DNA of 64,000 bases from a virus (IMGVR_UViG_3300033156_000775:43030-107029), one strand, 5' to 3'. Counted from the stretch's first letter, positions 492-60,498 are shown. A program made the numbers and translations. Notes: a model not told the origin generated them from the sequence alone.

Positions 492-697
492 AAATAACAA
501 TTGAAAGGGTTGATCCTGAGGAAATAATTAGGGAGATAGTAGGGAGTATCCCATATCATGTCAGGAAGTCAGGTAATAGGATAGAGATCAAAATTGAAGA
601 TGCTGACGCTAGAACACTAAGTGTTGTCCGGACTACACTTAGAGACAGGATTAAGAGGAAGCTCCCTAGAGGATGGAAAGTGAGGATTGATGGGTAA
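488..697 (+). CDS. Small hypothetical protein; contains a palindrome copy (VVRTT)
   Basis: ATG at 488 overlaps upstream stop (ATGA). Confidence 0.5.
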   Translation: MKITIERVDPEEIIREIVGSIPYHVRKSGNRIEIKIEDADARTLSVVRTTLRDRIKRKLPRGWKVRIDG

Positions 698-848
698 TGC
701 CTATAACTTCCCCAGTTAGAGTAGTAAACTTTGAAATGCTATTGCTATTATCATCCCTAAATATAGAAGAAGGGTTCCCTAGCCTGAGTGTTTCAAGCAG
801 GAATATAACTAATCATCAGATACAAACTTTTGGGGAGGTCAATATTGA

Positions 849-3800
849 ATGATTGAACTGATACGAAAGCATCTTTCTAGTTTCTTAAGACCAATTGTAG
901 AGGAGATTATAACTGAGGGGATTCAAATTGGTACACATACGATTTATTTAAGACCAACCTACATTGACATGCAAAATAATGCTTTAAAGAAAATTGGAAC
1001 CTTGACTTTTGGTACTGGTGAAGATACTAATCTTTACAGGTCAGGAGTAGATACACTGAAAACAGATGATACCTTCGAGGTAGCTGGAACAATCAAGACT
1101 GATATTATTCAGAACTATTCATCTGGTGATATTCTCCTCAAGGCGTTAACATCAGCAGATCTTAGAGTCCAGAATATGGGAGTAGTACTAGATAACATAG
1201 TGTCTATTGGATGGTATAACAATGCGGGTACCAAGATAGAACGTATTATTAGTTTGGATGAATACGACTCATTTGTTATCAGAGGAGGATCTCCTGGAAT
1301 CAGTGACAACTCTGTTAGATATGTTTCATTTGACATGTTAGGGAACACTACCTGGAACCAAATATGGCGTATTTGGGATGAGACTCCAGCTGATACAGAT
1401 TATTCAGATCCAGGAGCTAGTAGTGACTTACCTAGTGCTGGAGCTTCTTATGCAACTGACATAGTTAATATCTATAGAGATTATAAGAGAGAAGGAGGAG
1501 ACTTCTCTACATACATTAAGCTGTTTCCAGCTAAAGCAGAGTCTAAGACATCAGCTCAGATAAGAAAGTCCCCTCTATTGGTATTTATATCTAGATACTG
1601 GGATGGATATCAGAGTCAAGATGCAGAAGCTAAGATGCAATTTGAAGTAACGACTACTAGCCCATTAGCTGCTAATTTCTATTTGTCTCTATTAGGTACT
1701 ACTGTTCTAAACATCAATTCAGCTGGTAATCTTACTCCTGGAACTCCTGATTCACAGGATATGGGTAATGATGCCAGTAGATGGAGAGACCTATATCTGT
1801 CTAGAACTCTGGATATTGAATTAGATAGTTCCATAGGTGACGGAGATGACTATATAAGAGTAAAACGTAATGACTTAGCTTCTGATGAGCCTGTGTTCTG
1901 GTTACATGAAGAGCAGAAGTCTGGAGGAGGAACTACTGATCAGATAACTCATCTACAGGTAAGAGGTCCGTTACATGCCTATGTAGCTAAGGATGTATCA
2001 GCTGATAGCTTCTTTACTCCGTATATAGATTTAGCTGATGTTAATTGGTCATGGGCTTTGGGACTAGGTGCTAGTGGTAATACAAGTGGAGATACTACAT
2101 GGCTATATTTCTCATGGGTATATGGTACTGGTAGCTATCAAGAAATAGCTAGGATAGATAATGCTGGTTTTCTACAGATACGGAGTGGTATAACGACTCT
2201 GTTAGGAGGAACTACTTATGTTCCTACAGATCAAGTGCCATTGTATATAGCAGTTCAGTCTTCTCATGCAGCTAATTTAGCTGAATTCTGGACTGGTAGT
2301 AACAAAGTCTTCTATGTAGCTAACGATGGTAATCCTACGATAAATCATGCATCATCTCCATCTTTGATAATGCAAGTAGGTGGGACTGATAAATTTAGAC
2401 TAACATTTAATGGTACAGATACGCTTCTAGATGCTGTGACTGGAAATATCTATGCTAATGCAAACTTACTCCCTTATGGTTCTTATAGCTTAGGTTCTTT
2501 ATCTAGTAAATGGCTTAACGCCTTTCTCAGCGGATACGCTGACATAGGATCTCTAAGAATAAGTGGAACCGAGGTTTTAACAAGTGGAAGAGTTCTTCAG
2601 AACGTTTCTGCTGATGCTGGAATAATTACAAGTGGACTTTTTAATGTAGCAAGGATACCTGACCTAGATGCTTCAAAGATAGTTTCAGGAGTCTTCGATG
2701 TTGATAGAATTCCAAATTTAGATGCTTCTAAGATTACTTCAGGGGTTTTTGACCTAGTTAGGATTCCTTCTATCGACTGGACAAGGATGCCTTTCGATGA
2801 TTGGAATGAATTGCTGGCACAATTAGGCAATACTGTCGGAGACTACTTGAGCCTAAGCTATCTTCAGATAAACGGTTCAACTGTTTTAACCAGCGGTAGA
2901 GTATTACAGAATATCGCTTCAATAGCTCAGAGTTTACTTTCAGATGGGGATAATACGAGAGATTTGGGCAGTTTAAGCTATAGATGGCGAAATCTCTACA
3001 TCGGAACAGATATTTACTTAGGTGGTGATATTCGTGGAGATGGTCAAAATGCTATTATTGATCAAGTAGATGGTTCAAATGCCTACTTCCACTTTAGAAG
3101 CTATACTGGTTCTGGTAGCTACGTTAATGCAGCTTACTTAAATGCTGGAAAATTTGTCATAGCTGCTTCAGGAAACATACTTCCAGCTTCAACCCGAACA
3201 CATAATATTGGGACTCCAGACTTGAGATACTATGATCTGTTTCTAGGTCATTCACTAAACATAGAGCTCACAGGATCGATAGGAAATGGTAACAACTACA
3301 TATCTGTAATAAGATCAGACTTAGCAGCTGATGAACCAGTATTCTGGTTACATGAAGAATCCATAGAAGCTGGATCTACAGACCAAATCACTCACTTACA
3401 AGTAAGAGGACCAGTTCACGCATATATCAACAAGGATGTTAGTGTCAATATTAGCTACACTCCGTATATAGATGTAGCAGATGCTAACTGGAGCTGGACA
3501 GCTGGTCTAGGAGCTTCAGGTCCATCATCTTCAGATGATACATGGTTGTACTTTAGCTGGGTATACGGTACTGGATCATACACTGAAGTAGCTAGATTCG
3601 ATAAAGATGGATTCTTACAAGTAAAGAGTGGAATAACAACAGTACTTGGTGGTTCAGTAAGTGTACCAACTAGTGTAGTCCCATTGGATATAGAAGTTCA
3701 ATCCAGTCATGCAGCTGATATCATGAAAGTAGTTAGAGGAACAAGTACAGTTTTTGAAATAGGTCAGTATGGTCATATAATAATGAACACTACGAGTACT

Positions 3801-4957: not shown

Positions 4958-4967
4958 GTGAGTGCTG

Positions 4968-5510: not shown

Positions 5511-7811
5511 AAGATGTAGTCCGGACTATATATGAAGTCCCGGGTAGTGTTAAGTTCCAGCTGTTCTTATGGTACAAGGACCCAGTGCTCTTCTTCAGAG
5601 AAGTCTTCAATGTAGAGCCATACAGCTACCAGAAGAGAATCCTCAAGGAGTTTGTGAACTTAAAACGGATGATGATCTCAGCTGCCTCAGACACTGGTAA
5701 GACACTTCTGCTAAGTGCACTAGCGTTATGGTCAGCTCTGGTAAAGTCCTTCATAGAGGACATCAAGTATCAAGTTGTGATTCTAAGTGGCTCCAGAGAG
5801 CAAGCTGAACGGCTATATCAATACACCAGGGAAGCGTTGATGTCTAGTGAGGTGCTCTACCCACTTGTGGTTAAGGAAAGAGGTAAGCCTAAGATCCTCA
5901 AGAGCTACGTTGAGTTCATCAATGGATCATGGATAAAGACATTTGCCAGGGCACTGACATCAATCCAGGGTGTACACGCACAGATGGTGATTGTTGATGA
6001 GGCAGCTCTTAAGGAGCTGGACTTCTTCATCAAGGATACTCTGAGAATATCCAGAATATGACCCTAAGAAATGTCCAGATGGATGGAGGAGATATCACTG
6101 GAGTGCCGATGAATGTCCTAGGACCAAGAAAAAGCTAGAAGAGGCTAAGACACTGGATGAGGAGACATTCTCAATATACTATGAGGGGAAGCCATACAGC
6201 AAGGACCCAAACAAGGTTGTACCTATACATCTAATCAGAAGACAGTCTGAAGGTATCAAAAGATTCAAAGTAGATCCAGCTAACAGAGCTGGACTAATCA
6301 TCTTCGGGGTCGACTACGGATCATGCTTTTCAGAAGACACTCAAGTCCTGACTAATCATGGATGGAAATATTTCTATGAACTAAACCCATCCGACCTAGT
6401 TCTAACTTTGAATACTAAAACATTAAAAGCAGAATATCAGAAACCAAAGAAGATTCATTCTAGATTCTATTCTGGAGAAATGATATGGATTCATTCTAAG
6501 AATCTTGACATACTAGTGACTCCACATCATCCTATTCCCTTTCTTGATAGAAACAAGAAGAGACTCCATTGGCACTTGGCTTTCGAACGGACTACACATG
6601 ATTATCTAATTAGGAAAGCTCGGTTTTCAGGATATAAACCAGATTTTTGGGAGATTCCTGAATATTATAATGAATACTGGTGTGGACATTACCATTCAAG
6701 TCATAGAGAATATTTCAAGCCAAAGCTAAAAGTTCCAATTGAAGATTTCCTTAGGTTACTAGGCTGGTATCTATCAGAAGGTAATATTTTCAAAGAAGGA
6801 TTTTACATCTCCCAGTCTAAGCTGAAACACCCAAAATATTGTGCTGAAATCAGTGCCTTACTCTCTCGACTTGGGCTAAATGTTGATTATAATTTCAACA
6901 ACACTACTAAAGGCGGATACTTCAGAGTTTTCTCGATGCAGTGGAGACAATATTTTGCTCAGTTTGGAGAAAGTGAAGAACGATTCATCCCAGAAGACAT
7001 TAAAAATCTAGATGGTTCTCTCCTAGAAATCCTTCTTGAGACCTTGATGAAGGGAGATGGTGCCAAAACTGGTTTTTACTACTGGACGGATTCAAAACAA
7101 TTAGCAGATGACCTGCAGGAGATAGCTTTAAAGACTGGTAGATACATCCCTTGGATAAGCTCCAGGATCCGTAATGGGAAAGTAGAATACTCTGTACATA
7201 TGAAGCAGACAGACTCTAGCCCTAACAAGAAACATTACGATGAAGTCAAATATTCTGGTAAGATTTGGTACATAGAAACTGAAAATCAAACATTATGTGT
7301 ACGAAGAAACACTAAACCAGTATTTCTACATAATACAGCTGGGACGATGCTAGCTATTTTGCATAAAGTCGGTAAAGAATACCATCTCATAGATTTGCTA
7401 GAATGGAAAATGCAGAAGTACGATGACGTACAGGACTGGATAGAGTCTGTAACTGAGCTCTATAAACCGGACTACATATTTGTAGATGCACTGCCTAAGG
7501 GAGAGTCTGAACGCACAGTTGACAGGCTTGGACAGAAGGGGTACACTGTGACTCCAGTGTTCTTCTCTCAAGAGAAGTCTAGGTACCAGACTAGGATGAG
7601 AAGTCTATTTAGCCTTGGACAAATATGGATTCCAGAATCGTTTGTAGACCTTCTAGAAGAGTTAAGAGCGTATGAGTGGACTACCAAGAGAGGAGATGAT
7701 AGAGTAGTAGCTTTGATGCTAGCCCTGATTGACCCTGAACCTTCAGAATCACAGTCGGTATTTGGGATAGCTGCAAGACCAATCTCCAGACCACTCTCCC
7801 ATCGACTGTGA
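5507..7811 (+). CDS. terL: Terminase large subunit, frameshifted near 6050, with intein
   Basis: Walker A-like AASDTGKT and Walker B VIVDEAA in 5507..6061. Second frame open 6045..7811 with nuclease GVDYGS/TAGT, IFVD and GDDRVVALMLA motifs. Confidence 0.85.
6324..7334 (+). mobile_element. Intein with LAGLIDADG homing endonuclease in TerL nuclease domain (337 aa)
   Basis: Starts CFSEDTQV after GVDYGS; block B VTPHH; LLGWYLSEG and LMKGDG motifs; ends VFLHN followed by Thr. Confidence 0.92.
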
Positions 7812-11787: not shown

Positions 11788-12703
11788 AAATAATTTCTCT
11801 ATTCCTCCCTATGTAGTCCGGACAACACTTTAAGGAGAAACTAATTTGTCCTCTAGAAAAGATTTATTCCTCTTGTGTAGAAGGTTAGGAACAGAAAGAT
11901 GCAAGTACAGAAATTCTTATTGCTGTCTTGTTGGGTATAAGCCAAAGGGAAAGTGTCCAGCTGAAAATGATGTGTAGTCCGGACTACACTCTCATGGGTC
12001 TAGTCTATCTATATCCTAGATAGACAGATAAACCATGAAAGGAGAAATAAAGATGAAAATTGAACCATACGTGCTTGATGAGATTGAGAACAGAATAATG
12101 CAAGTGATTGAGTCCTTAACTGAGAAGCTTGATGCTGATGATGCTGATATTACTGAGCTTCGTATTTTAATAGAACACATCCATGTCTTGAAAAGACATC
12201 TTCAGGCTTAACGGGAAGGATGTAGGTTGTCAATTGAGATAAGTGAGGAGGACATATGTAGATTCCTAAAGCTGAAGATGGGAAGAAGACCGTCCCCTTC
12301 AGAAGTCAAGTCCTTCATCAGCTATCTGGAAATAGACATGCCAGAATGGCTGAATGACAACTTCAGAAGCTGGGAAAAGTGTAGTCCGGACAACACTTGT
12401 TAGGGATGAAAATTATGAGTAAAGCTAAGAGAGTAAAGGTTTATCTTGAAATAACTGATAAGAGCTACACAGCTCTCTACACAGCTTCAGACATAGCTGA
12501 CATCCTAGAAAAAGCACTATATGAAAATCTGATTGAATACTACATTATTAGAGTAGTGGAAATTTAAAGTTGTTAGTCTCTTGACAAGAGCTGATGTTTA
12601 TCTTGTCAATTATAGATCATTTCTTCATAGGATATTTCCTTTCATGCTTCTTCTGGATTGGATACTTGTTATATAAATCTAGAAAGAAGAAATAAGCCCT
12701 AGA

Positions 12704-13628: not shown

Positions 13629-13835
13629 ATGAAGCAGCTAACATTCTATGACTTTGAAGGGTTTAGAGAGCTATGTCACTTCTTTGATGAAGTGCATGAG
13701 GAGCTAGCTGACATGTATGAGGCATTGAAGAAACCTAGAGCATATATCAAGGTTGAGCTGACAGGATACACTGGAGATAAAAGAGATGTTCTGGAGATCA
13801 AGATCCCTAATAGTGTAGTCCGGACTACACTCTAG
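13629..13835 (+). CDS. Small hypothetical protein ending in palindrome-encoded VVRTTL
   Basis: ORF, SD. Confidence 0.55.
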   Translation: MKQLTFYDFEGFRELCHFFDEVHEELADMYEALKKPRAYIKVELTGYTGDKRDVLEIKIPNSVVRTTL

Positions 13836-16350: not shown

Positions 16351-16878
16351 TTGATTGCCAGGATCTCCAGCCTAGTTTCTAGACTTCATACTGAGTGGCT
16401 AGGTTACTTGGACTATGAACAGGTTGAGGACAATGGTAGACTTGTGTACAGAGCTACAGAGATTACTATCCCAGATCAGGAGGTCACATACTCATCGGTA
16501 AACGTTAACGATCCTGCTATAGGGATAGGTAAAGGAGTCATCCACTGTCATCCCTGGAAGGGATATTCATCTCATTCTAACACTGATGAGGACTACGTTG
16601 ATAGGAATCATCCCTTCAGCATAGTTGTAAACAAGGACTTGGACTTCTCTGTAAAAGCTGTAGTAGACGTCCCATGTGGGTCTAGGATACTAGTAGATGG
16701 GGAAGTAGAAATTGAATATCCAGATGTGGATACCAAGTCCTTCCTAGAGGAGGCTAAGAGCAAAATCAAGGAGAAGAAGTATGTCTACAGATACTCTGCA
16801 TCTAGGAAAAAGTCATCAGGGATAACTGCTATGGAGTATGGGTACCTAGATCCATACTCATATTCCTGGATGCCGTAG
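16351..16878 (+). CDS. JAB/MPN metallopeptidase (start uncertain)
   Basis: EWLGYL...HCHP-x6-HSNTD JAMM motif. Confidence 0.85.
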   Translation: MIARISSLVSRLHTEWLGYLDYEQVEDNGRLVYRATEITIPDQEVTYSSVNVNDPAIGIGKGVIHCHPWKGYSSHSNTDEDYVDRNHPFSIVVNKDLDFSVKAVVDVPCGSRILVDGEVEIEYPDVDTKSFLEEAKSKIKEKKYVYRYSASRKKSSGITAMEYGYLDPYSYSWMP

Positions 16879-17032
16879 TCCGGTCTACATCTAGAGAATG
16901 ATAGACTATGCCTCTAGCTCTTCTAATCATATCGTTAGTTGTATGGATAGTTGACTTTATACGTAGACCTAATCTATGGGAGCATTTACCCCTATCTGAG
17001 CGTTACAGACAGAAGTTTATACGGGACTGTCC

Positions 17033-17576: not shown

Positions 17577-18812
17577 ATGGAAAGCTCTATGGAATGGATA
17601 CCATCTGAAATACTGTCATCAATTAGAGAGGAGCTCAAGGGAGCTAGAAGTATCCAGGATATCAGGAGTATTGTAGTCCAAGCTACAAGATGTAAGCCTG
17701 GTGACATTAAAGATTTCCATTACAAGCTTGGAGGACATGACTGGAAAGGGGTGATCTATACTAAACGGAACACTCTTATGGGATCAGTATTCTCACTGTT
17801 TGACAGTAAACCCTTTGTAGTTAGAGGCTATCCTAAGATCAGATATGCATTAGATTCTAAACTCTTAGGAAAGGAAGTAACTGTACAGATGAAGTATGAC
17901 GGGACTAACATTGGACTTTTCCTCCTACCTAATGGAGAGATCATGGGAAAGACTAGGCTGATGCCTAGATGGGATGTCCAGTCTTTACAGGCTATGAAGA
18001 GACAGGTTTCTCATTGGAAAGAGCTCTTTACGAAGATAGATGATGGCTATCTCCTTAAGCAAGTCAAGTATCTAGCTGAAGATGACTACATGATATTTGG
18101 AGAGCTCTATGGATATCTAAATCCTGGAGAATTCATTAAATATTCAATTCCAATAGCCTTCAAAGCTTTCGATATAGTTGACACTAGGACACTAAAGTTT
18201 CTTAGCTCTAAAGACATGGAGGATCTATGCTATGAGCTGGACATTCCATATGTAGAGGAGCTATGGCATGGTATCCTAACTAGGAAAGAGGTTGAACGAA
18301 TAGAGTACGAAGCTAAACAGTATGTAAGAGAGGATGGCTATGAGGGATTTGTAGCTAAGCATTTCTCCCCTATAGATAACGACATGCACTTCTGCAAGCT
18401 TAAATGTGAAGAGATAAAGGAGAAAGCCTGGAAGCTTAGACCTACTGGAATCCCAATTTCTATTATTCGTAAAGCCATACGAAAGGCTATGGAAAGCTAC
18501 CCATACTATGACAAAGTAGATCAGCTATATCCAGTAGTTAGAGAGGAGCTCCTAGAAGAAGTAGAGCCCTCATTGGTAGATGAATCAGAGAACAAGATAA
18601 GATCTGTTATTAGAAGAGTACTGTCTCCTACACCTGAGGAGCTAAAGAAGTCCATAAGGGAAATTATGCTTGAGCTTAGGGAGAGAGGTATGGACTTGAA
18701 CAAGAAGGGAGAAGTGCTCCCAGCTCTAGCTCATCGTCTAGGAGACATATCAGGAAAAATGCTTTACAGACTTTACACTCAAGTCTTATTTGAGATGGAA
18801 AGTGAAGTGTAG
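17577..18812 (+). CDS. ATP-dependent RNA ligase, Rnl3 (Pab1020/MthRnl)-like
   Basis: VRGYPKI, motif I KYDGTN, III FGELYG, IIIa FDI, IV EGFVAK, V KLK; no OB domain. Confidence 0.85.
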   Translation: MESSMEWIPSEILSSIREELKGARSIQDIRSIVVQATRCKPGDIKDFHYKLGGHDWKGVIYTKRNTLMGSVFSLFDSKPFVVRGYPKIRYALDSKLLGKEVTVQMKYDGTNIGLFLLPNGEIMGKTRLMPRWDVQSLQAMKRQVSHWKELFTKIDDGYLLKQVKYLAEDDYMIFGELYGYLNPGEFIKYSIPIAFKAFDIVDTRTLKFLSSKDMEDLCYELDIPYVEELWHGILTRKEVERIEYEAKQYVREDGYEGFVAKHFSPIDNDMHFCKLKCEEIKEKAWKLRPTGIPISIIRKAIRKAMESYPYYDKVDQLYPVVREELLEEVEPSLVDESENKIRSVIRRVLSPTPEELKKSIREIMLELRERGMDLNKKGEVLPALAHRLGDISGKMLYRLYTQVLFEMESEV

Positions 18813-18843
18813 TCCGGACTACATTCTTAAGGAGAGTTTCCTA

Positions 18844-21403: not shown

Positions 21404-21604
21404 ATGCTAGGTATTCCAGAAGCCCAAGCAGAGGTGCTATTCGATATAATACAGCTTTGCAACAAGCATGGAATTGACATTGTTGATCTTGAGGGTTATC
21501 TACAAGATCTCATATGGATTGAGGATCTTACAAGAGCTTCAGGGAAAGGTGTAGTCCGGACTACACTTAGAGAAGCTCTGGAAAGACTAGGCACTACAGA
21601 TTGA
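21404..21604 (+). CDS. Small hypothetical protein (contains palindrome)
   Basis: ORF. Confidence 0.45.
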   Translation: MLGIPEAQAEVLFDIIQLCNKHGIDIVDLEGYLQDLIWIEDLTRASGKGVVRTTLREALERLGTTD

Positions 21605-21909
21605 AAGAGAGAAGCTTATGGACTAATGGACTAATATTTACAAATTTATTTCTGTTTAGGAAACAAATAATGTAGTCCGGACTACATCTTAACTTAATCA
21701 TTGGAAATTTATCTGGTACTTTAGGTGAAGGAAATGAATGAGATATTGTTTAAACTAGGACATAGGATAGATGAGCTTGAAGAGAAACTGAACCTAGTCA
21801 TTGCAGCTAATCAATATCCACATCTAAGAAACCAGATCCTAAGGAGAATCTTGAGTAATAGTGCCCGTTCTTAGTACTCCTACCACTACAAATTATCTCT
21901 ATTTCCACA

Positions 21910-24871: not shown

Positions 24872-24914
24872 ACAAGTGTAGCCCGGACTACATTTTGAGG
24901 GAGGATACTTAGCG

Positions 24915-26532: not shown

Positions 26533-26583
26533 AAAAAAAATGGACATAGGACAAGTTGAAAATAAAAGGAGGAATGATAAGGT

Positions 26584-36513: not shown

Positions 36514-37329
36514 ATGAGCATAGAAGATAGTTTCTATTTAAAGGATAAGACTCAGGAGTTCTTATCATTCCTATTTCCAGGAGTGGACATTATAGCTAGC
36601 CCACCCAAGACCAGCTACAGGACCAATGCTATAAGGATTAAGAATATAGTGCTATTTGGACAGATGAGTAAGGGGAAGACAGAGCTTGTAAGGAAGATAG
36701 CTGAGGAGGCAGTTAGCTTCTATGGTGAGAGCAATGTCCATGCTGTACATTCTGAGGAGGGAGATCTGGAAGCAGTAATGGAATCTATTGTTTCTAACGA
36801 TGAGCTAGTTCAATTAGCGTTTATAGACAATTTCACTCTTAAGGAAGTGCCTAAATCCTTGATCTCCAAATACTTCAATATCAGAGGAGACTGGATGGAC
36901 AGTACTGGTAGGAACTATGGATACATAATCTCCATATTTGGCCTACACAGGTTTGAAAGCACATATCCTGAGTTCAAGTCCAACTTTGATGGAGCTATAG
37001 TTAAGAGTGCTCCTGGATTCAGTAGATATGACAAGTCTGTAGTAAGGTCTTTTATTGGAGATAAGGGACTACATGACCTCTTAATTATAGAGGAGAAGAG
37101 AGATCAGGATCCAGAGTACATGAGCTACTCAGTGTTTGGAATATATGGTGGACTTAAGACCGGACTCCTAAAACTAGACATGGCTAGTAAGAACTATCTT
37201 GAAAGTGTAGTCCGGACTACATATTCTAATGAATATAACGATCAGGAAGAGATGCTTCTTAAGTATCCTTACTTGGACAGGGCATTAGTATCTGCCCTGC
37301 TTGGACGTACTATTAAGCGTTTAAGGTAA
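36514..37329 (+). CDS. P-loop NTPase-like protein
   Basis: GQMSKGKT; LAFIDN. Confidence 0.6.
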   Translation: MSIEDSFYLKDKTQEFLSFLFPGVDIIASPPKTSYRTNAIRIKNIVLFGQMSKGKTELVRKIAEEAVSFYGESNVHAVHSEEGDLEAVMESIVSNDELVQLAFIDNFTLKEVPKSLISKYFNIRGDWMDSTGRNYGYIISIFGLHRFESTYPEFKSNFDGAIVKSAPGFSRYDKSVVRSFIGDKGLHDLLIIEEKRDQDPEYMSYSVFGIYGGLKTGLLKLDMASKNYLESVVRTTYSNEYNDQEEMLLKYPYLDRALVSALLGRTIKRLR

Positions 37330-39730: not shown

Positions 39731-40036
39731 GTGTCTAAGCGGACTAGACTAGAAATCGAGACGTATATACTCCACTTAATCAGGACACACTATACTCCTC
39801 CATATGCCATGGAGAAATATCAGGGTACATTAGGTACCCATATAGCTCAGAAGGCTAATCTAACGTGGAAGCAGCTACAGGAAATACTGGAACGCTTTAA
39901 GCAGCTAGGCTTGATCAGAGAGGTTAAGGAGATATCATCCAAGCCTAAATGCTCTTATGTAATCACTGAAAAGGGGAAACTAGCACTGGACACCTACAAG
40001 TACTTGAAGTATTTACTTGGCCATGCAATGGTGTAG
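39731..40036 (+). CDS. Archaeal winged-helix regulator
   Basis: KRTRLEI...THIAQKANL...GLI...YVITEKG. Confidence 0.8.
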   Translation: MSKRTRLEIETYILHLIRTHYTPPYAMEKYQGTLGTHIAQKANLTWKQLQEILERFKQLGLIREVKEISSKPKCSYVITEKGKLALDTYKYLKYLLGHAMV

Positions 40037-40299
40037 TCCGGACTACATTTAAATTCACCTAAATGGAGAGAGAACATCCATGTATGGAAGGAGAAAACTA
40101 ATTGTAATAGAAAGGAAAGATGAGAATGGAGATATCCTGCCCATATGGAACTGTCCATACTGTAATGGAAGCCTAGAAATAGTTCATAAGGAGGAATGTT
40201 CAAGTCTGGATATTTACAAGCAATGTACTAAATGTGGAAGAGTCTACAAAGAGACTTATGTGATAGAGCAGATTGAATTAGTGGAGGACAGAATATACG

Positions 40300-40944: not shown

Positions 40945-42744
40945 ATGAGCATGGGTAACTCAGCTAGATCTAGGAAAAGAAGGAATAGAGCACCTATAGA
41001 TGAATACTTAGGGAACAATTCCTGGAGACTTAAAGAGAATGCTAATTTCAACAGGTCATTTAGTGGATTATTGTCTTACATAGCTGATAAGGAAATGGCC
41101 AGGTATGTCCTTTCCAGGATGCCTAAAGAGGCAGCTAAAGCTCATGTAAATGGGGACATTCACATCCACAACTTGAGTAGAGGAATAATTCCCTATTGTC
41201 ATGGAGGAAGCTTGCTATCTCTACTTGAAAAAGGACTGTTCTCCGGAGCTGTACATTCAAGGCCAGCTAGGCACTTTGACACAGCTATAGATCATATATC
41301 TAATTATTTTCTTATGGCCCAACAGGAGTTTGCTGGTGCCTTAGCCTTCAGCTCATTTAACACTCTCATAGCTCCATTTGTCCATTATGACAAGCTGTCC
41401 AGGAGAGAGGTTAAGCAAGGTGTTCAAAGGCTAATATACAATGCCAACTTCACTGTTAGAGCTGCTTTCCAGACTTTATTCACTAACTTGACTTTTGATG
41501 CTAGATGTCCACGTATGTTTAGAGATATCCCTGTAATGGTAGGAGGTAAGCCACAAGAGGACACATATGGGGACTTTGAGGAGGAAGCTAGGCTAATACT
41601 AGAAGTGTTCTCTGAAGTATTGTTAGAGAAAGATCCCAATGGAGTTCCATTTACCTTTCCTATTCCAACAATCAACATCGGAAAGGACTTCAGATGGGAC
41701 TTTAGATGTACAAGGAAGCTGGTTGAGTGCTCAGCTAAGCTTGGATCATGGTACTACATGAACTTTAGAGGCAGCAACATAGATGAGGACTCAGTCAGGG
41801 CTTTATGTTGTCATTTGAACTTAGATATCAAGAACCTACCTTCTAGAGGAGGATTCTGGAACTTTACTGATGGAACTGGAAGCTACGGTGTATGTACAAT
41901 TAATCTTCCAAGACTAGGCTACATATCTAAAGATGAGTCTCACTTTTATGAGAGGCTAGACAATATCCTGGACATTGTAAAGGCTCAGCTTATATGGAAG
42001 AGGGAAATGATCATTAGGACAATGAAGGCTGGACTTATGCCATTCATGGATTTCTATGACTTTACACTGGACAGATATTTTGCTACTATAGGTCTCATAG
42101 GCATAAATGAGATGGTCCTTAACCTTACAGGTGAGGATGTCTTGGAGAATAGACGACTAGTTAGGGATGTTGTCCAGTATGTTAAGGATAGGGCTAGGGA
42201 GTTCATGGATGAGACTGGAATGCTATGGAACGTGGAGCTAATACCTGGAGAGGGATCTAGCTATAGATTGGCCTTCATAGATAGGAAGAAGTACAGGAAC
42301 ATAGTTACTCTAGGCACTAGGGAAGCTCCATACTATAGTGCCTTGCTTGTTCCTCCAAGCTACAATGTAGACTTGATGGACAAGGTGATCTTTGAAGAGG
42401 AGATATTGCCTCTATTTGATGGAGGAGCTGTGTCTAGAACGTTCCTAGGAGAGACACCTGAAGCTGACATGGCTGCTAAGCTCCTGAGAATGCTGAGTAG
42501 CACTAAGCTACCGTACTTTGACCTTACACCTACATTCAGCATATGTCCAGTAGACGGTACGTTCCATCAGGGAGTAGTGGAGAAGTGTAGGGTATGTGGA
42601 CATGAGAATGACATATACTCTAGGGTTGTGGGGTACTATAGGCCTTTCAAGAAGTATAATGTAGGCAAGCTGCAGGAAGCTAAGGAAAGAGTCCTGTACA
42701 CCAGTGACACCCTTACAAGTGTAGTCCGGACTACACCCACCTGA
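40945..42744 (+). CDS. nrdD: Class III anaerobic ribonucleotide reductase
   Basis: HIHNL..PYC, FTFPIPT, LCCHL, TINLPR, SRVVGYY glycyl-radical loop. Confidence 0.95.
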   Translation: MSMGNSARSRKRRNRAPIDEYLGNNSWRLKENANFNRSFSGLLSYIADKEMARYVLSRMPKEAAKAHVNGDIHIHNLSRGIIPYCHGGSLLSLLEKGLFSGAVHSRPARHFDTAIDHISNYFLMAQQEFAGALAFSSFNTLIAPFVHYDKLSRREVKQGVQRLIYNANFTVRAAFQTLFTNLTFDARCPRMFRDIPVMVGGKPQEDTYGDFEEEARLILEVFSEVLLEKDPNGVPFTFPIPTINIGKDFRWDFRCTRKLVECSAKLGSWYYMNFRGSNIDEDSVRALCCHLNLDIKNLPSRGGFWNFTDGTGSYGVCTINLPRLGYISKDESHFYERLDNILDIVKAQLIWKREMIIRTMKAGLMPFMDFYDFTLDRYFATIGLIGINEMVLNLTGEDVLENRRLVRDVVQYVKDRAREFMDETGMLWNVELIPGEGSSYRLAFIDRKKYRNIVTLGTREAPYYSALLVPPSYNVDLMDKVIFEEEILPLFDGGAVSRTFLGETPEADMAAKLLRMLSSTKLPYFDLTPTFSICPVDGTFHQGVVEKCRVCGHENDIYSRVVGYYRPFKKYNVGKLQEAKERVLYTSDTLTSVVRTTPT

Positions 42745-45534: not shown

Positions 45535-45612
45535 AAGTGTAGTGTAGTCCGGACTACACATATTAAGCTTTAAATTTCAGATTGCTTCCTCTCTTATCAT
45601 GGTGTATCAACA

Positions 45613-45830: not shown

Positions 45831-45848
45831 AGTGTAGTCCGGACTACA

Positions 45849-47315: not shown

Positions 47316-47483
47316 TGAGGATGGAATTTGTAAGTGAAAGGAAAGTGTATTGTCCAAGGTGTGGTAGGTCCAGAGGAGTTGTCTTGTGGAAAGAGACTAT
47401 TAAAGACTCTACCTGGTACTATATCACCTGTAAGCATTGTCACTTGATATTTAGGATAGTAAATCTGGGAGTGTGGAGTGGAT

Positions 47484-48500
47484 ATGTCTGAATGGAAGAA
47501 CTTGGCTATTCCCTCAGAAGAAATTGAGGATGTAGCGTACTTTGTATATAGGAAGGGAACTAGAGTAGTCAAGAACATAGCTCTCAAGACCACTAGAGAA
47601 GTTATATTTCTTAACAGCCAGAGAGCTAGGAGACAGTTCCTTAACCATCTGGGTCTACCATTCCTGGACACTGAGCGTATCTATGACTATAGAGAGAGAA
47701 ACAGAGTTGTTAAGGAGGCCATAGAGAAGAGGTCTCGTCTTGAACGCTCAGGTAGAGCTTCAAAGCTGCTGTTTAGATGTAGGGAGCATCCTAGGTATGG
47801 TCTCCAAGCCTGGAGTGTAGTTACTGAGGAGTATGTTGAGATCCCAGTACCTGAAGCTAGGGACATGGCATTCAACATCCTAGAGAAGGTGGTTGGAGGA
47901 TACAAGCTTGAGCATTCATGGGACTCAGGGTCAGCATGGTACTACAGGGTTATCCTATACAAGGAAGATAAGCCATTAAAGGTAGGGGATATAGCCATCT
48001 GTGGGCTAGTATTCAAAATAGGATACTCAGGAGATAAGTCCCTAGCAGTGTATCCATACTGGAAGATCCTGTCATGTCTAAATGGACTGATGTCCCACCA
48101 TTCAATTCAGATCTATAGGGGAATACATAGAGGAGATAAAGAGAAGATACTGTCAAGGTTTAGATATGCCATCTATGAGGCTCTGGACAAGCTAATGGAG
48201 CTAGCTCCAATAATCGATAAGGCTAAGTCTCCAATTTCTGAAGCTGAAGAACGAGCTATGCTAGAGAAAGTGCTACGTAAGTACCCCCAGCATGTTCAGG
48301 AAAAAATATGGTATTTACTACGTTCAAAGTATAGGGATGAGACTGGAGTGTACAAGCTGTCACAAGCATTGTCTGATGTAGCCTCACATGGAATAGGGAT
48401 TACTGATAGATATGCTCAGGAGCTGTCTAAAGATGCCTATAGACTTATAACCCGGTGTAGTCCGGACTACACAGAAATAAAAGGAAATGGTAGAGAATGA
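47484..48500 (+). CDS. DUF932-like protein
   Basis: GDKSL...SCLNGLM...H motif. Confidence 0.6.
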   Translation: MSEWKNLAIPSEEIEDVAYFVYRKGTRVVKNIALKTTREVIFLNSQRARRQFLNHLGLPFLDTERIYDYRERNRVVKEAIEKRSRLERSGRASKLLFRCREHPRYGLQAWSVVTEEYVEIPVPEARDMAFNILEKVVGGYKLEHSWDSGSAWYYRVILYKEDKPLKVGDIAICGLVFKIGYSGDKSLAVYPYWKILSCLNGLMSHHSIQIYRGIHRGDKEKILSRFRYAIYEALDKLMELAPIIDKAKSPISEAEERAMLEKVLRKYPQHVQEKIWYLLRSKYRDETGVYKLSQALSDVASHGIGITDRYAQELSKDAYRLITRCSPDYTEIKGNGRE

Positions 48501-51377: not shown

Positions 51378-51593
51378 TGTAGTCCGGACTACACAATATG
51401 GAGGAGAGATGTTGAGTACACCTGAAAAATGTCCACTGATCAAAACATGTAAAGAGAAGGTACCCAAAGACATCTTTGAAGACATATGTATGACTCCTGG
51501 ATGGATTTACTGTGAAAGTGCAGTTGAGGAAGCTAAGAAACACTTCAAGCTCCCTAGAGAATGGATGAAAGAGTATGAGGAGGAGATGGAGTA

Positions 51594-52652
51594 ATGGAAG
51601 TGAAGGATATATTAAGTGATCTTATCACTGAAGTTACATTGTACTTTGGAGAGCCCTGGAGATACAAGAACACTGAGGGAGTTATCCTCCCAATAATAGC
51701 TAGGGCTTCATGGGAAAGGAACTATGTCCTACTTTCGGAGGTACAGGACCAGGTTAAGATAACTGACACTGGAAGCATCAGTAAGCTAAATGTAGAGAAC
51801 AGCTCTGACAAGAATGTCCTCATTAGAACTGGAGAAATGTTAAAAGGGGCTTCAACTCAGCCAAGGACATTCCAGCGTTCAGCTGTCATAGCTCCTAACA
51901 AGAAGAGCCTCATAGACGTAAGATGTATTCAAGCTTCACACCCAATATTGCCTAGTAGCAGATTCACAGCTACTGGATGGTATACTCCTAAAGAGGTCAA
52001 TGAAGTCCTACTGTCTTCTTATTATACTCATAATAGGCAGGGTGCTGTATGGCAATGCATCAACAGTATCAGCACTACATATCATGCATTAGTGTCAGCA
52101 TCAAGTCCAGAGCTAGCTACTTCTCTTAGCTACACAGATTCTCTGATAGATGCTCAGAGGACTTTGGAGTCTGGACTCAAAGTGCTAAGTGAAATGATTA
52201 GCCATGTCCCCATACATTCCAAGCAGGTAGGAGCTGTATTCTTCAAGGGAAACAAACTACTAGGGCTAGAGATGTTTGACAGTCCAGATTCATGGAATGC
52301 TTCGTATGAAGCTGCTATCAAGAAGTATGGTTACAACCTAACAAGCCCAGTGGATGAGTCAGTGCTAGATGTCAAAGTTAGAGCTGAAGTTGTAAAGAAG
52401 AAGGCTAAGGAGTTCATTAGGAAAATCATTGAATCCAAGATACATGACAAGGTAGAAACTGGGCTCTATGAGTCCGCAATATTGGAGAGCAAGGATATAG
52501 TTGGTGAATATGTAAGGATGGACGACAGAGTAATCTATTTAGTGGCATTAGCAAAGGATCCTAGCCAAAAGCCTCCTAGCACCAGGACTTTTCCATCAAC
52601 ACAGACAATTACGTTTCCTGATGTGACATTCACAGGCTGGAGTGTGGAATGA
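51594..52652 (+). CDS. ARPP-1/DUF6569-like protein
   Basis: GEMLKGA..Q.R...IDVRCIQ; QGAVW; QVGA...LGLEMFDSP. Confidence 0.7.
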   Translation: MEVKDILSDLITEVTLYFGEPWRYKNTEGVILPIIARASWERNYVLLSEVQDQVKITDTGSISKLNVENSSDKNVLIRTGEMLKGASTQPRTFQRSAVIAPNKKSLIDVRCIQASHPILPSSRFTATGWYTPKEVNEVLLSSYYTHNRQGAVWQCINSISTTYHALVSASSPELATSLSYTDSLIDAQRTLESGLKVLSEMISHVPIHSKQVGAVFFKGNKLLGLEMFDSPDSWNASYEAAIKKYGYNLTSPVDESVLDVKVRAEVVKKKAKEFIRKIIESKIHDKVETGLYESAILESKDIVGEYVRMDDRVIYLVALAKDPSQKPPSTRTFPSTQTITFPDVTFTGWSVE

Positions 52653-53521
52653 AATTGGTTGACTTTAGGGAAAGGTTGAAATGGGTTACACCTGGAGAAT
52701 GGGAGCTAATAAAGATCCCAGTAGAGGACATCAGGGGAATATCAAAGTTTAATGTTAGACAGATAGCTCCTGAGATGGAGATAGACATTCTAGCTAAATC
52801 CCTTAAAGTATCTGGGATCAACATAGTCCCAGTTGTCCTTGATGAGAACAATGAGGTCATAGCTGGTGGACGTAGATACATGGCTGCTAAACGTGCAGGG
52901 ATAAAGGAGCTATTTGCCATTAGGAAACCTATGAATGAGAAGGAAAAGCTAGTATACTCGATGATTGAGAATGTAGTCCGTCTAGACTTACATCCAGAGG
53001 ACAAGTTCAACTTTGCACTGAAGATGCGTAGAGCAGGGTTCAATGTAACAGAGATAGCTGAGATCCTAGGTGTGCATAGGCTCACAGTTACTGAGTGGCT
53101 AAAGTGGCATGACATCCCACCAATATTACAGGAAACAGAAGAAGGGGCTAGGAGATACCAACAACTATCACAGAGGACTAGAAAGAAAGTTAGACCACTC
53201 CTCAAGAAGGAGCCATTCAGGAAGAATGTTGACAGTGCAGTTAAGCTGATGAAGGTGGCTGAGAAGGGACCTACAAGGGAAGTGGAGCAGATACAGAAGG
53301 AGACTAATCTTGGGCTGTATCCAAACATGGACTTCCATGAGGAGATAGCTGAGCATGAGGAGGAATATTCTCTACACCACATCAGGTTCCATAAGGATCT
53401 AGAAAGGAGGCTAGTTAAGGTCTTCAGATATATGGGATGTGGCTTCTCAGATGGTGTAGTAGCCCTGCTAGAGGAGATACTACCAGATAAAGAGAAAGAA
53501 CTGGGGATAGTACCTAGTTGA
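52649..53521 (+). CDS. ParB/Srx-domain protein with HTH
   Basis: FNVR, PVVL, IAGGRRYMA, IENVVR.DL, EIAEILGVHRLTVTEWL. Confidence 0.88.
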   Translation: MKLVDFRERLKWVTPGEWELIKIPVEDIRGISKFNVRQIAPEMEIDILAKSLKVSGINIVPVVLDENNEVIAGGRRYMAAKRAGIKELFAIRKPMNEKEKLVYSMIENVVRLDLHPEDKFNFALKMRRAGFNVTEIAEILGVHRLTVTEWLKWHDIPPILQETEEGARRYQQLSQRTRKKVRPLLKKEPFRKNVDSAVKLMKVAEKGPTREVEQIQKETNLGLYPNMDFHEEIAEHEEEYSLHHIRFHKDLERRLVKVFRYMGCGFSDGVVALLEEILPDKEKELGIVPS

Positions 53522-53955
53522 GGAGTAAGAAACTAGTGGACATCGAAATTAAGAGAGCTTTGGATTTTGCTATGAAGCTAGCTTTGACATTTAGGAGTAG
53601 GGTTGGAGCAGTTCTAGTAGCCGAGAACAACAGGGTATTTCTGGGATTCAATATTGAGAACTACTGTCACAAAGGCTACCATGCAGAGGAGACAGCTCTC
53701 ATAAATGCCCTACTACATGGATATAGAGGCATAATGCTTAAAGAGCTCTATTTGACATATGACTTCCATGAACACTCAGAGAATATCTATCCAATGTGTG
53801 GACATTGTAGGCAGCTATACTGGGAGTTTACCCATCCAGACCTATTTGTCACGGTAGTAAATCAGAAAGGAGAAATAATGTACAGTGGGAAGCTTTCAGA
53901 GCTATATCCTTTCCCATATCCAAGAATAGATAGAAATGTAGTCCGGACTACATGA
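53518..53955 (+). CDS. Cytidine deaminase-like protein
   Basis: VGAVL, GFNIEN, HAE, PMCGHCRQ. Confidence 0.88.
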   Translation: MRSKKLVDIEIKRALDFAMKLALTFRSRVGAVLVAENNRVFLGFNIENYCHKGYHAEETALINALLHGYRGIMLKELYLTYDFHEHSENIYPMCGHCRQLYWEFTHPDLFVTVVNQKGEIMYSGKLSELYPFPYPRIDRNVVRTT

Positions 53956-53967
53956 GGAGCTTAACGT

Positions 53968-56508: not shown

Positions 56509-56523
56509 GGTGATAAATATATA

Positions 56524-58714: not shown

Positions 58715-58995
58715 CTTCTATAGTGTAGTCCGGACTACATCTGGTGAGGACTATGTATAGTGTGGATGTAACCAGACAGGTAGTAGAACAGCTTAGACAT
58801 TTCCCTGAGCTAGCTCTGTTCTTTGATACGCACTTTGTAATTAAAGACAAGGTTTCCATAGTACCAGTCTTCACTAGGGAGGGAATGACATTCCCCAAAT
58901 ATTCCGTTATAGCTAGAAGAAACATCACATTCATTGACAAAATAAGATATTATTTTAGAGATTTTGTTCTCTACATGAGATATCTAAGGTGATAT

Positions 58996-59190
58996 TTGAT
59001 GGTGGACTATATAATTAAACAATTAGATATTGACATTTGGGAAATAATCTCTCCTAAGGGAGAACTTTATCATGTCTGGATAGACGCTAACGGAATCTTT
59101 AAATGCACATGTCCACATCACGTCTATCACAAAGGAAAAGTAGAATGCAAACACATTAAGATGGTGAAAAAACGCTATTTGAGGGAATGA
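58996..59190 (+). CDS. SWIM zinc-finger protein
   Basis: CTCP...CKHI. Confidence 0.8.
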   Translation: MMVDYIIKQLDIDIWEIISPKGELYHVWIDANGIFKCTCPHHVYHKGKVECKHIKMVKKRYLRE

Positions 59191-60173
59191 TATTGAGTAA
59201 CTTAACGGATATTAAAGGCTTAGGGCCTAAGAAAGCTGAGCTTCTAGAGGAGAAGGGAATAACAACTATAGAGCAAGTGTCCATCATGGAGCCTGAGGAG
59301 CTAAAGGTTATTCTAGGTGTCAACCTCAACAAGGCTAAGGAAATACTGGAGTCAGCTAATGAGCTCACTGAGGGTAAGATAAGGCTGATGACAGCTAAGG
59401 ACATCTATGAAATAAGGAAGAAGACCATCAAGAGGATACCTACTGGGTCAGCAGCTCTTGATGAGATGATAGGTGGAGGAGTACCTACATGTTCGCTGGT
59501 AGGGCTGTTTGGACGTCTGGGAAGTGGTAAGTCCCAGACTTGCTATCAGCTAATAGTAAACTGCATGAAATATTTAGGTAGAAAAGCAGCTTTCATAGAG
59601 ACAGAGCCCCAGACATTGGACTTAGATAGGATACTACAAATGGCCAATGATCAGGGAGTTGAGCTAGACTTAGATGATATCTATGTCATCCCAGCTGAGA
59701 TGATAGACAGTCCAGAATGGCTGTACAAGGCATACCAGTTTATCCATCAGCGTATCCTTGAGGGCATGGACATTGGGCTAATAGTAATAGACAGCTTCAA
59801 TGCTCCATTTACTCAGACAGCTAGGGAACATCTACCTATCAGGTCTAGAGCTCAGCGTAGACATATAGGGTTCCTGCAAATGCTAGCTAGGAAATACAAC
59901 ATAGCTGTAGTAATGACATTCCAGGTGATGGGAGTCCCAGATCAGGGGCAGCAGCTTCAGGCTAGAAAGGACTTTGGAATAATGTATCCTCCAGTGGCAT
60001 CTGAAGCTGTGAAGCATGGAGTTAACTACTGGATAGCTCTAAGGAGAAAAGCTGCATCCAAGGGACCATTTCATGAAGCTACACTGGCTGATGGTCCAAT
60101 GCCTAGGGCTACAGTTGAATTCTTGATAGACAAGATAGGCATAAGAGATATTGGTGGACGTAGAGGAGCTTAA
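59187..60173 (+). CDS. radA: RadA recombinase
   Basis: N-terminal HhH (IKGLGP), PTGS..LDEMIGGG, GRLGSGKSQ, IVIDS. Confidence 0.92.
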   Translation: MILSNLTDIKGLGPKKAELLEEKGITTIEQVSIMEPEELKVILGVNLNKAKEILESANELTEGKIRLMTAKDIYEIRKKTIKRIPTGSAALDEMIGGGVPTCSLVGLFGRLGSGKSQTCYQLIVNCMKYLGRKAAFIETEPQTLDLDRILQMANDQGVELDLDDIYVIPAEMIDSPEWLYKAYQFIHQRILEGMDIGLIVIDSFNAPFTQTAREHLPIRSRAQRRHIGFLQMLARKYNIAVVMTFQVMGVPDQGQQLQARKDFGIMYPPVASEAVKHGVNYWIALRRKAASKGPFHEATLADGPMPRATVEFLIDKIGIRDIGGRRGA

Positions 60174-60498
60174 GTGTAGTCCGGACTACATTCAAGAGGC
60201 ATATACATTGACAGATGCTCGTGAATCTATATTCAAGAACAAAGCAAATGAATTGTTAGAGTTCTTGATTGAGAAGGACAGGAAATATGCTGGTGACATT
60301 CCATTAGGGAATATTAAGGAATATTCAACAAAGTGGGACATATCACCTCTCAAGGTGTTGCTTGTTAGGATTCATGACAAGCTCAATAGAATATCAAAGA
60401 ATCTAGATGACAAGGAAATACTTAGAGAAGAGATCAGGGACATTTGGGGATACTCATTGATCATCCTAATCTTGATGGATGAAGGTGTTGAAGTGTAA
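60151..60498 (+). CDS. DUF1599-like nucleotide-modification-associated protein
   Basis: KDRKYAG...VRIHDKLNRI...DIWGYS. Confidence 0.65.
   Translation: MVDVEELKCSPDYIQEAYTLTDARESIFKNKANELLEFLIEKDRKYAGDIPLGNIKEYSTKWDISPLKVLLVRIHDKLNRISKNLDDKEILREEIRDIWGYSLIILILMDEGVEV

Follow-up and report, generated by a model that had tools for sequence, protein, structure and literature searches.

What is served by a 16-bp palindrome, TGTAGTCCGGACTACA, that recurs along an entire viral genome? The window analyzed here is a stretch of 64,000 nucleotides, covering bases 43030-107029 of a virus record that is 107,029 bp long and bears direct terminal repeats. The initial annotation had reported 17 perfect and at least 8 near-perfect copies, and recounting returned 17 perfect copies together with 8 further copies having one or two mismatches, while shuffling the window 100 times yielded 0. 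The complete virus holds 29 perfect copies, 38 with at most one mismatch and 43 with at most two, against an expectation of no more than 0.003 copies of the 16-mer genome-wide under Markov models of orders 1-4. The mean density is one copy per ~2.5 kb, mostly between genes, and a genome search found no other over-represented palindromes. The scarcity of CG noticed earlier by eye is borne out by an observed/expected ratio of 0.25 in the genome; CGCG and GCGC do not occur at all, and about 45 of the 77 occurrences of CCGG lie within motif copies.

An adapter or assembly artefact is not a tenable source of the motif, as the identical 16-mer recurs at matching positions in contigs of at least 11 metagenomes. 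The only literature match to the 14-nt core is the barcoded 806R 16S primer. This overlap is fortuitous, and the bases that come next in the genome differ from those of the primer. Alignment with relatives indicates that the sites are positionally conserved and not polymorphic insertions, with 37 of 43 aligned sites shared. After one ascertained site per contig was taken out, the motif diverged at 5.2% of positions and its flanks at 17.0% (P=7e-6), so that the motif changes about three times more slowly than its surroundings. The exact 16-mer is unchanged in relatives whose proteins are 40-70% identical, and a 54%-identical homologue has an in-gene copy (VVRTT) at the very same codons. The earlier proposal that selection acts on the DNA itself is supported.

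Placement along the genome is far from random, with 61% of copies no more than 40 nt from a stop codon (10% of the genome is that close), and the usual position is 15-22 nt ahead of the next start, just 5' of a GGAGG-like site. As had been claimed, the TAG of the motif supplies the stop codon of three genes: the RNA ligase gene 17577-18812 (stop 18810-18812, perfect copy 18808..18823), the winged-helix (wHTH) gene 39731-40036 (stop 40034-40036, perfect copy 40032..40047) and the JAB ORF 16351-16878 (stop 16876-16878, copy 16874..16889 with two mismatches, perfect in relatives L116 and L098). Other copies closely follow a stop: 51378..51393 (perfect, its first base directly after the stop of 50385-51377, and kept in L060, L064 and L095), 60175..60190 (perfect, 1 nt past the RadA stop at 60173), 45543..45558 (perfect, 8 nt past) and 24877..24892 (one mismatch, 5 nt past a stop and 22 nt ahead of a start). 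The perfect copy 13814..13829 is 18 nt upstream of the start at 13848 and is kept in L077 and L116 despite indels in its flanks; 45833..45848, also perfect, adjoins the start at 45849. Two perfect copies fill gaps, 31228..31243 a 48-nt intergenic gap and 58724..58739 the gap 58714-58744. Gene junctions contain 5515..5530 (one mismatch, between 4962-5510 and 5507-6061, perfect in L103) and 12380..12395, which has the recurrent one-mismatch form, an ACAACA variant also found in the intergenic copy 11812..11827. Perfect intergenic copies are found at 11973..11988 and at 21671..21686, the latter 121 bp from the perfect copy 21550..21565, which is kept in L115 and L117. The copy at 622..637 has one mismatch (TGTTGTCCGGACTACA) and is perfect at the same position in L084.

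At least five perfect copies lie within genes. The copies earlier described as lying in a TROVE-like ORF and in the DNA ligase, NrdD and deaminase genes are indeed inside those genes or at their ends, but the one assigned to TerL is a three-mismatch copy whose TGA is the stop codon. Perfect copies are found in the final 25 nt of NrdD (40945-42744; copy 42720..42735), where the deaminase gene ends, 15 nt ahead of the PolB start (53937..53952), close to the end of ORF 47478-48500 (48456..48471), and, beyond those already described, within ORFs 25268-26083 (25504..25519, identical in L061, L108 and L113) and 36514-37329 (37206..37221). The copy in the ATP-dependent DNA ligase gene 33922-35565 (34791..34806) has one mismatch and is perfect in L051 and L056, and a two-mismatch copy within ORF 23417-24871 (23695..23710) is kept in its variant form in L080 and L115.

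A position just upstream of ribosome-binding sites and just downstream of stop codons would also suit an element that acts in the transcript, as an intercistronic hairpin serving as terminator or attenuator, RNA-processing site or REP-like stabilizer of mRNA. The motif can fold into a stem of 7 bp closed by a CCGG loop, and the virus is rich in RNA-handling genes, including the RNA ligase and the TROVE-like gene. The core hairpin is weak, however (about -6 kcal/mol at 37 C), and it is followed by C/T-T-T and then mixed bases, not by the U run that, with a stable GC-rich stem, marks an intrinsic terminator. The flanks are symmetric (aaaR-TGTAGTCCGGACTACA-Yttt, weakly) without strand asymmetry or covariation, variant copies disrupt the stem without compensation, and the sequence itself, beyond its structure, is invariant in distant relatives. 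Perfect copies are also conserved within genes that look essential and in which cutting or terminating the transcript would do damage, and a transcript signal would not be expected to be evenly spaced along the DNA. We consider the hairpin explanation improbable.

The anatomy of the site instead points to a cis-acting double-stranded DNA site for a protein dimer. Among 74 non-redundant sites the flanks are mirror-symmetric, G/A at -1 against C/T at +16 and A at -2 to -4 against T at +17 to +19, and this holds when the sites are oriented by gene direction. The flanking pairs do not covary in these 74 sites (35 Watson-Crick pairs, 31.8 expected, P=0.24), as would be seen if each half-site were recognized independently, and variant copies give A.A, T.T and C.A mismatches yet keep one half-site perfect. 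Copies occur in both gene-strand blocks and at the convergent junction as well as the divergent one. Their spacing is more even than chance, with a coefficient of variation of 0.61 compared to 0.98 in a null limited to gene junctions (P=0.0006), and one run of consecutive gaps reads 2826, 2688, 2823, 2623, 2922 and 2559 bp. It is because the flanks are symmetric without covariation, the variants unpaired, the in-gene copies persistent and the spacing even that we favor a DNA site over an RNA hairpin, and the dimer site proposed in the initial annotation fits this anatomy well.

The copies are also places where genomes differ. When relatives are compared, 23 of 121 internal HSP ends fall within 25 nt of a motif, where 4.5 would be expected and 2000 trials never gave more than 13, and small ORFs are present or absent directly beside the motif at no fewer than six junctions. 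L116 and L098 lack the 140-bp small ORF that follows copy 16874..16889 in this genome, while at 24877..24892 L061 and L080 have the perfect form and then an extra small gene of ~200 bp. The small gene downstream of copy 18808..18823 is replaced in L115, the 825 bp (three small ORFs) 3' of copy 40032..40047 are missing from L043 and L050, and the homology of L112 stops exactly at copy 37206..37221. L091 carries, in inverted orientation, the stretch that lies between the copies at genome positions 33258 and 37812. The even spacing, the symmetric flanks and this link to gene gain and loss and to inversion all go beyond the initial annotation.

These breakpoints might be taken to mean that the motif mainly serves to link recombining segments, or spreads by itself as a mini-palindrome, its identical joints moving cassettes between co-infecting viruses and other mobile elements; otherwise unrelated contigs do carry the same 16-mer, and the virus encodes RadA. 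Breakpoints at intergenic gaps are partly expected, though, because gene-sized indels must end there. A linker needs neither a palindrome, nor even spacing, nor retention within genes, and the sites are shared between relatives in the manner described above. The complete genome encodes no resolvase, tyrosine recombinase or Y1/RAYT transposase; PF00589 and PF00239, which would accompany a site-specific recombination site of the integron attC, hix or dif type, were not found in it, nor was PF01797 (Y1, RAYT/IS200-like transposase). Recombination as the chief purpose of the motif is thus quite unlikely in our judgment.

If the palindrome is a site for a symmetric dimer, which protein reads it? 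Our leading candidate, at about an even chance, is the virus's own partner-less protein of the ParB/KorB/Noc type, encoded at 52649..53521 on the plus strand (290 aa). By its domain matches and its modeled fold this gene is a genuine ParB/Noc/KorB homologue, consistent with its earlier description as a ParB-HTH protein. Pfam ParB_N matches at 5.6e-11 and is followed by an HTH; phmmer matches Spo0J (1vz0) at E=5e-12 over residues 20-165 and Noc (7ng0) at E=1e-10 over the N domain and HTH. An AlphaFold2 model (pLDDT 93) retrieved ParB, Noc and KorB with Foldseek at E-values down to 7e-9, the best structural match being KorB (8qa9, TM 0.73), while the C-terminus looks ribbon-helix-helix-like and not KorB-like. 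It is the only ParB_N domain in the complete genome. In the distant relative L123 a motif copy stands directly after the ParB stop, ahead of PolB.

In a 35-sequence alignment, R37, S51, G56, R75, R76, N108 and R111 of the viral protein correspond to Caulobacter R60, S74, G79, R103, R104, N136 and R139, among the ParB residues whose roles in CTP binding and hydrolysis were defined in Caulobacter (PMC8367383). The CTP-binding residues are thus kept and the protein is a predicted CTP binder. The hydrolysis residues Q58, E102 and E135 are not all retained: N35 stands where Caulobacter has Q58 and G74 where it has E102 (GGRR for GERR), and E135 is kept as E107. In Caulobacter, the E102A protein binds CTP and its clamp closes without hydrolysis (PMC8367383). 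For DNA contact, viral R144 aligns with Caulobacter R173, which contacts G1 of parS (PMC7383237), and the motif likewise has G at position 1. The viral protein has other residues at the canonical contact positions K171, S172 and N178, and four alignments disagree on which of its residues corresponds to specificity residue 201. Both lineages known to share the motif have the recognition helix HRxTxxEWLKW, which varies among more distant members of the subfamily. A ParB gene in a virus does not predict such a lattice, since none of 75 other IMG/VR loci encoding ParB relatives shows a dispersed palindrome; a few have clustered centromere-like repeats.

Binding of this protein to the palindrome, and the effect of such binding, we infer. 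Each HTH of a ParB dimer would read one half-site, Arg144 (the R173 equivalent) meeting G1. CTP binding would then shut the N-terminal gate, turning the dimer into a clamp that slides onto adjacent DNA, and loading sites ~2.5-2.9 kb apart would let clamps cover the entire genome. The clamps may be long-lived, since two of the three CTP-hydrolysis residues are replaced. The output might be silencing or control of the whole genome, in the manner of KorB, or the marking or compaction of the viral DNA, in the manner of Noc. It would probably not be classical ParA-driven segregation, which was among the roles first suggested and is unlikely because the complete genome lacks ParA: PF13614 and PF01656 found no match there and matched all control genomes, so that the Walker ATPase partner of the ParA/SopA type that belongs to a ParABS system is missing. 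As a side effect, small genes could be gained and lost at the shared exact 16-18-mers, which would serve as joints for recombination.

Any dimeric binder fits all of the DNA-level evidence, and the reader might instead be another viral protein or a host factor, the sites then forming a genome-wide network of repressor or roadblock sites comparable to the stoperators of mycobacteriophages or to the C1 operators dispersed in P1. One such candidate, or a co-factor, is the 101-aa winged-helix protein at 39731..40036 (plus strand; HTH_45, PF14947, E=3.5e-10), whose stop codon lies within a motif copy. Another is an 80-aa protein (26290..26532, plus strand) of an unnamed family, the only protein family that the virus has in common with the motif-rich but unrelated contigs L075, L082, L105 and L114. 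On those contigs its gene is 65-80 nt downstream of the motif and a TATA-like AAATTATAAATA box, a layout typical of autoregulation. The motif is denser, at ~1 per 1.2 kb, in the integrase-bearing contigs L105, L075 and L114; no ParB gene was seen in these three, which are only 2-4 kb long and detectably similar to this virus in the 80-aa protein alone. The model of the 80-aa protein (H-E-H-E-E, pLDDT 80) gave only weak winged-helix matches, none significant (E 0.08 or worse), the 80-aa proteins of this virus and the other contigs are just 31-38% identical while the 16-mer is identical, and no motif is near the gene in this virus. A host regulon is not visible, because among 185,579 cellular species representatives no genome has more than one motif copy, and that one by chance. 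Stoperators house their sites in short gene-end gaps, as here, but are asymmetric and oriented with transcription, while this site is symmetric. We think such a different reader rather unlikely.

The virus is tailed and probably archaeal. With the ParB-type protein as reader, we would tentatively suggest, as a possibility that is somewhat doubtful, that one exact 16-bp "address" is common to an archaeal tailed virus and to one or more further kinds of mobile element from the same habitats, and that a hydrolysis-poor CTP clamp of the ParB type loads on it at even spacing and coats the whole of the foreign DNA. If true, the virus would encode a chromatin or self-marking system of its own, whose identical joints would also drive cassette exchange and inversions between elements.

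Several known systems invite comparison. REP/BIME elements with RAYT are likewise multi-copy palindromes right after stop codons, and GTAG occurs within the viral motif, but REP elements are imperfect, longer than a 16-mer, absent from coding sequence and dependent on a Y1 transposase, while the viral motif has perfect in-gene copies and lacks hairpin covariation. The stoperators of Cluster A mycobacteriophages, bound by the L5 gp71 repressor, occur throughout the genome in some two to three dozen copies, within the short gaps between genes and close to stops and starts, and Brown and colleagues reportedly described them in 1997 in short gaps at gene ends. They too are dispersed short sites in gaps, but of 13 bp, asymmetric, in one orientation relative to transcription, and bound by a monomeric HTH immunity repressor, while the viral site is a perfect palindrome with symmetric flanks.

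Closer are the sites of the ParB family. Noc sites are dispersed, at ~70 per chromosome, and are ParA-independent. Both parS and NBS are palindromes of 16 bp and have CG at their center (PMC7383237), and the likeness to parS first noted for the viral site, in its length, TGT...ACA ends and central CG, agrees with this class. The shared positions are T at 0, G at 1 (parS), T at 2, C at 6 (NBS) and the central C7-G; half-site positions 3-5 are AGT in the virus and TTC or TNC in parS and NBS. The proteins share an N-terminal CTP-binding domain followed by an HTH (PMC7383237, PMC8367383), and the viral one keeps the R173 equivalent of ParB, but differs from chromosomal ParB and Noc in the replaced contact residues noted above and in serving a viral replicon. 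In the linear prophage-plasmid N15, a virus-encoded ParB-family protein, SopB, binds several separate palindromes on its own genome, four IR centromere sites, and acts with SopA (a ParA) in plasmid partition (PMC7205306). The present virus, for which binding is predicted, has 43 sites, lacks ParA and shows no trace of maintenance genes of the plasmid type.

The best parallel is KorB of the IncP-1 plasmid RK2, which carries 12 unevenly spaced OB sites on 60 kb, compared to 43 evenly spaced sites on 107 kb here, and KorB works with IncC, a ParA. KorB is a CTP clamp of the ParB family that loads at a 16-bp OB palindrome, slides up to 1.5 kb, about half of the spacing in this virus, and also works with KorA (PMC11790492). 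Unlike RK2, the virus has no ParA, no KorA equivalent was identified in it, and its host is apparently archaeal; the viral protein differs from KorB in its replaced Q58 and E102 and its C-terminus. In both systems, 16-bp palindromes are spread over the whole replicon, close to promoters or distant from them in the case of OB (PMC11790492), the clamp belongs to the same family, with KorB its closest structural match, and the role extends beyond segregation alone. The lattice described here is probably a variant of the KorB/OB kind, in what is apparently an archaeal tailed virus.

Exact counting found 17 perfect copies of the 16-bp palindrome TGTAGTCCGGACTACA in the window and 8 more with one or two mismatches, in agreement with the 17 perfect and at least 8 near-perfect copies reported in the initial annotation. 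The virus record is complete, with direct terminal repeats, and its 107,029 bp (the window being bases 43030-107029) hold 29 perfect copies, 38 with at most one mismatch and 43 with at most two. The count against a Markov background that had been proposed bears out the enrichment: at most 0.003 copies are expected in the whole genome under models of orders 1-4. Shuffled sequence contained no copies of TGTAGTCCGGACTACA, and no other palindrome is enriched in the same genome. The scarcity of CG previously noticed by eye is real: CpG is strongly depleted over the whole genome (observed/expected 0.25), and CGCG and GCGC do not occur in it at all, yet about 45 of its 77 CCGG tetranucleotides fall within motif copies, so the motif has been retained against the compositional trend. 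TCGA stands at one quarter of expectation. Such depletion is extreme for a virus and extends to related metagenome contigs (0.10-0.35), suggesting that the host strongly avoids CpG or has restriction systems to match. One half of the palindrome, TGTAGTCC or GGACTACA, stands alone at 11 places in the genome where no second half can be recognised, compared with about 3 expected; these could be copies that have decayed, or sites of weak contact through a single half-site.

Among metagenome contigs, a search for exact matches gave 98 stretches carrying the 16-mer, of which 66 are low in CpG and about 40% GC (88 perfect copies in total); these low-CpG stretches represent 11 datasets or more. Many of these are 82-97% identical to this genome and carry the motif at the same positions, while the bases adjoining it vary or bear indels. 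With one ascertained site per contig left out, divergence affects 5.2% of motif positions and 17.0% of flanking positions (P=7e-6), which upholds the earlier claim that selection acts on the DNA. The 16-mer is also unchanged in ten more contigs from distant relatives (protein identity 40-70%), and an in-gene copy encoding VVRTT occupies the same codon positions in a homologue that is 54% identical. The library adapter or assembly artefact considered in the initial annotation is ruled out by the at least 11 independent metagenome assemblies, the matching positions and the coding context. A primer origin was likewise rejected, as the sole literature match is a chance overlap with the barcoded 806R primer. 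No other IMG/VR record has the 16-mer; the 28 matches there to its 14-mer core are all singletons in unrelated contigs. None of 50,697 phage records gave a nucleotide match. A background count in the host had also been called for; 596 Gb of species-representative prokaryote genomes contain only 16 single copies, and a host genomic motif was rejected on this count.

Copies are placed preferentially at the ends of genes: 61% have a stop codon no more than 40 nt away, compared with 10% of the genome, and the typical copy occupies the very short space that separates a stop codon from the following ribosome-binding site. The TAG of the motif is the gene's own stop in three genes of the window, as had been read from the sequence at the outset. 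The same placement is seen in the minus-strand gene block and at both a convergent junction (genome 13522) and a divergent one (genome 37812), and five or more perfect copies are found well within genes. No conserved TATA-like box stands at a fixed distance from the motif in this genome, and a promoter element was rejected; such a box accompanies the motif only in contigs of the L075/L105 type, short metagenome contigs that carry it. Spacing between copies is more even than chance even when the null model is restricted to gene junctions (CV 0.61 vs 0.98, P=0.0006), with consecutive gaps of 2826, 2688, 2823, 2623, 2922 and 2559 bp.

A palindrome between genes could act as an RNA hairpin or as a site in duplex DNA. 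We compared the two using 74 non-redundant sites oriented by gene direction. The flanks are mirror-symmetric, with G/A at -1 and C/T at +16, and A-rich positions -2 to -4 facing T-rich positions +17 to +19. Pairing within a site does not exceed what column composition predicts (35 vs 31.8 Watson-Crick pairs, P=0.24). Variants form A.A, T.T or C.A mismatches and usually retain one perfect half, the right half being intact in four of the five copies with three mismatches. The core RNA hairpin, of about -6 kcal/mol, is weak and is not followed by a run of U; an intrinsic terminator was rejected as a class. REP/RAYT elements were rejected as well, no RAYT (Y1 transposase) having been found in the genome. 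Symmetric and independent half-sites, conserved in-gene copies and even spacing together argue for a duplex-DNA site for a protein dimer, a prediction in which we have considerable confidence.

The product of the gene at 52649-53521 (+), of 290 aa, is a true member of the ParB/Noc/KorB family, as first annotated. Its sequence matches Spo0J (5e-12) and Noc (1e-10), over the N domain as well as the HTH, and its structural model (pLDDT 93) matches ParB, Noc and KorB structures, best KorB (TM 0.73). In a 35-sequence alignment with Caulobacter ParB as the reference for residue roles, all CTP-binding residues are present, while two of the three hydrolysis residues are replaced, with GGRR in place of GERR. 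Arg144 aligns with R173, the contact to G1 of parS (PMC7383237), and the motif has G at the equivalent position. The recognition helix is common to this protein and a 50%-identical ParB encoded on L123, a metagenome contig with the same motif, and differs in more distant members of the subfamily. Placement of specificity residue 201 differed in each of four alignments. The C-terminus is probably ribbon-helix-helix-like, judging from its modelled coil-helix-helix and from one homologue that matches RHH_1. The complete genome has a single ParB_N and no ParA, which rules out a ParABS partition system and makes classical segregation, among the roles suggested initially, unlikely. We screened other ParB-encoding IMG/VR loci for even-length palindromes and then for palindromes with central gaps; a dispersed palindrome was present in 0 of 75, and a few had clustered centromere-like repeats. 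We put the chance that this ParB is the predicted reader of the motif at about even.

Another candidate reader is a 101-aa HTH_45 winged-helix protein (39731-40036, +). The motif reaches its highest density, about one copy every 1.2 kb, in short contigs that bear an integrase (L105, L075 and L114), which share with this virus only a family of 80-aa proteins, encoded at window 26290-26532, L105:2792-3043, L075:225-467 and L082:353-595. In contigs of this type the motif and the TATA-like box, AAATTATAAATA, precede the 80-aa gene. This unnamed family has about 25 proteins, in which KPVKELP..RR is conserved at the N-terminus and GKVYL forms part of a C-terminal hairpin; its predicted fold is H-E-H-E-E, and winged-helix matches are weak and non-significant. 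The member encoded by this virus is a further candidate reader. The window gene lies between stretches of 11 and 9 A, at 26255-26275 and 26533-26541.

Homology between relatives also often breaks at the motif: 23 of 121 internal alignment ends fall no more than 25 nt from a copy, where 4.5 would be expected, and small ORFs are present in some genomes and absent from others directly beside it at six or more junctions. In L091, a motif-bearing contig with 60-72% protein identity, four structural-region genes are inverted between copies at genome 33258 and 37812 (L091:1-4102 against genome 33258-38886, inverted relative to the gene at 37936), with the breakpoints at the palindrome. No gene for a resolvase, an integrase or a Y1 transposase is present in the complete genome. 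Recombination at a shared exact sequence is more likely than a dedicated recombination system.

The virus seems to be a tailed virus of archaea. The closest matches to its PolB come from haloarchaeal tailed viruses (21-23% identity), with no PolB relatives found in IMG/VR, and it encodes RadA with HHH and Rad51 domains, an ERCC4 nuclease, the archaeal family DUF2153, and capsid and tail-tube proteins. The nearest Atlas clusters of ParB are archaeal, as a lead only. Genes unusual for a virus are those for the archaeal-type RadA, an ARPP-1 domain protein beside ParB and a dCMP deaminase (window 59187-60173, 51594-52652 and 53518-53955) and, elsewhere in the genome, those for the ERCC4 nuclease, two ThiF/E1-like proteins, two radical SAM proteins, UbiA, several glycosyltransferases and epimerases, and three N6/N4 methyltransferases. 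Related inteins of the LAGLIDADG type appear to be present in several genes (window 6408-7811 and 60850-63381; genome 27921-33005, 34889-36571 and 4724-5950). In the TerL ORF, about two thirds of the length resembles intein regions found in unrelated proteins, one region of the motif-bearing contig L107 matches three proteins (of 1694 aa, of 560 aa and TerL), and a LAGLIDADG_3 insert lies within an N6/N4 methyltransferase.

On bacterial chromosomes and plasmids, ParB-CTP clamps serve segregation (ParB), nucleoid occlusion (Noc) and long-range silencing (KorB). If ParB loads at these sites, some 43 evenly spaced copies would make the clamp a genome-wide device in a virus, its predicted loading sites kept even within genes of a genome otherwise purged of CpG, and in an apparently archaeal host, from a domain in which little is known of ParB biology. 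As an exact 16-mer, the motif offers a ready handle for experiments. Its occurrence in unrelated mobile elements, at points of gene gain and loss and at an inversion also bears on the shuffling of viral modules. Among known systems, ParABS depends on ParA, which this virus lacks, and stoperators were rejected because the present site, unlike them, is symmetric. By analogy, the motif would be a site of the KorB-OB or Noc-NBS kind, with both reader and function predicted. The closest known analogue of the viral ParB and its motif, for which binding is predicted, is KorB-OB of plasmid RK2, in which a ParB-family CTP clamp recognizes the 16-bp OB, slides up to 1.5 kb and silences promoters (PMC11790492).
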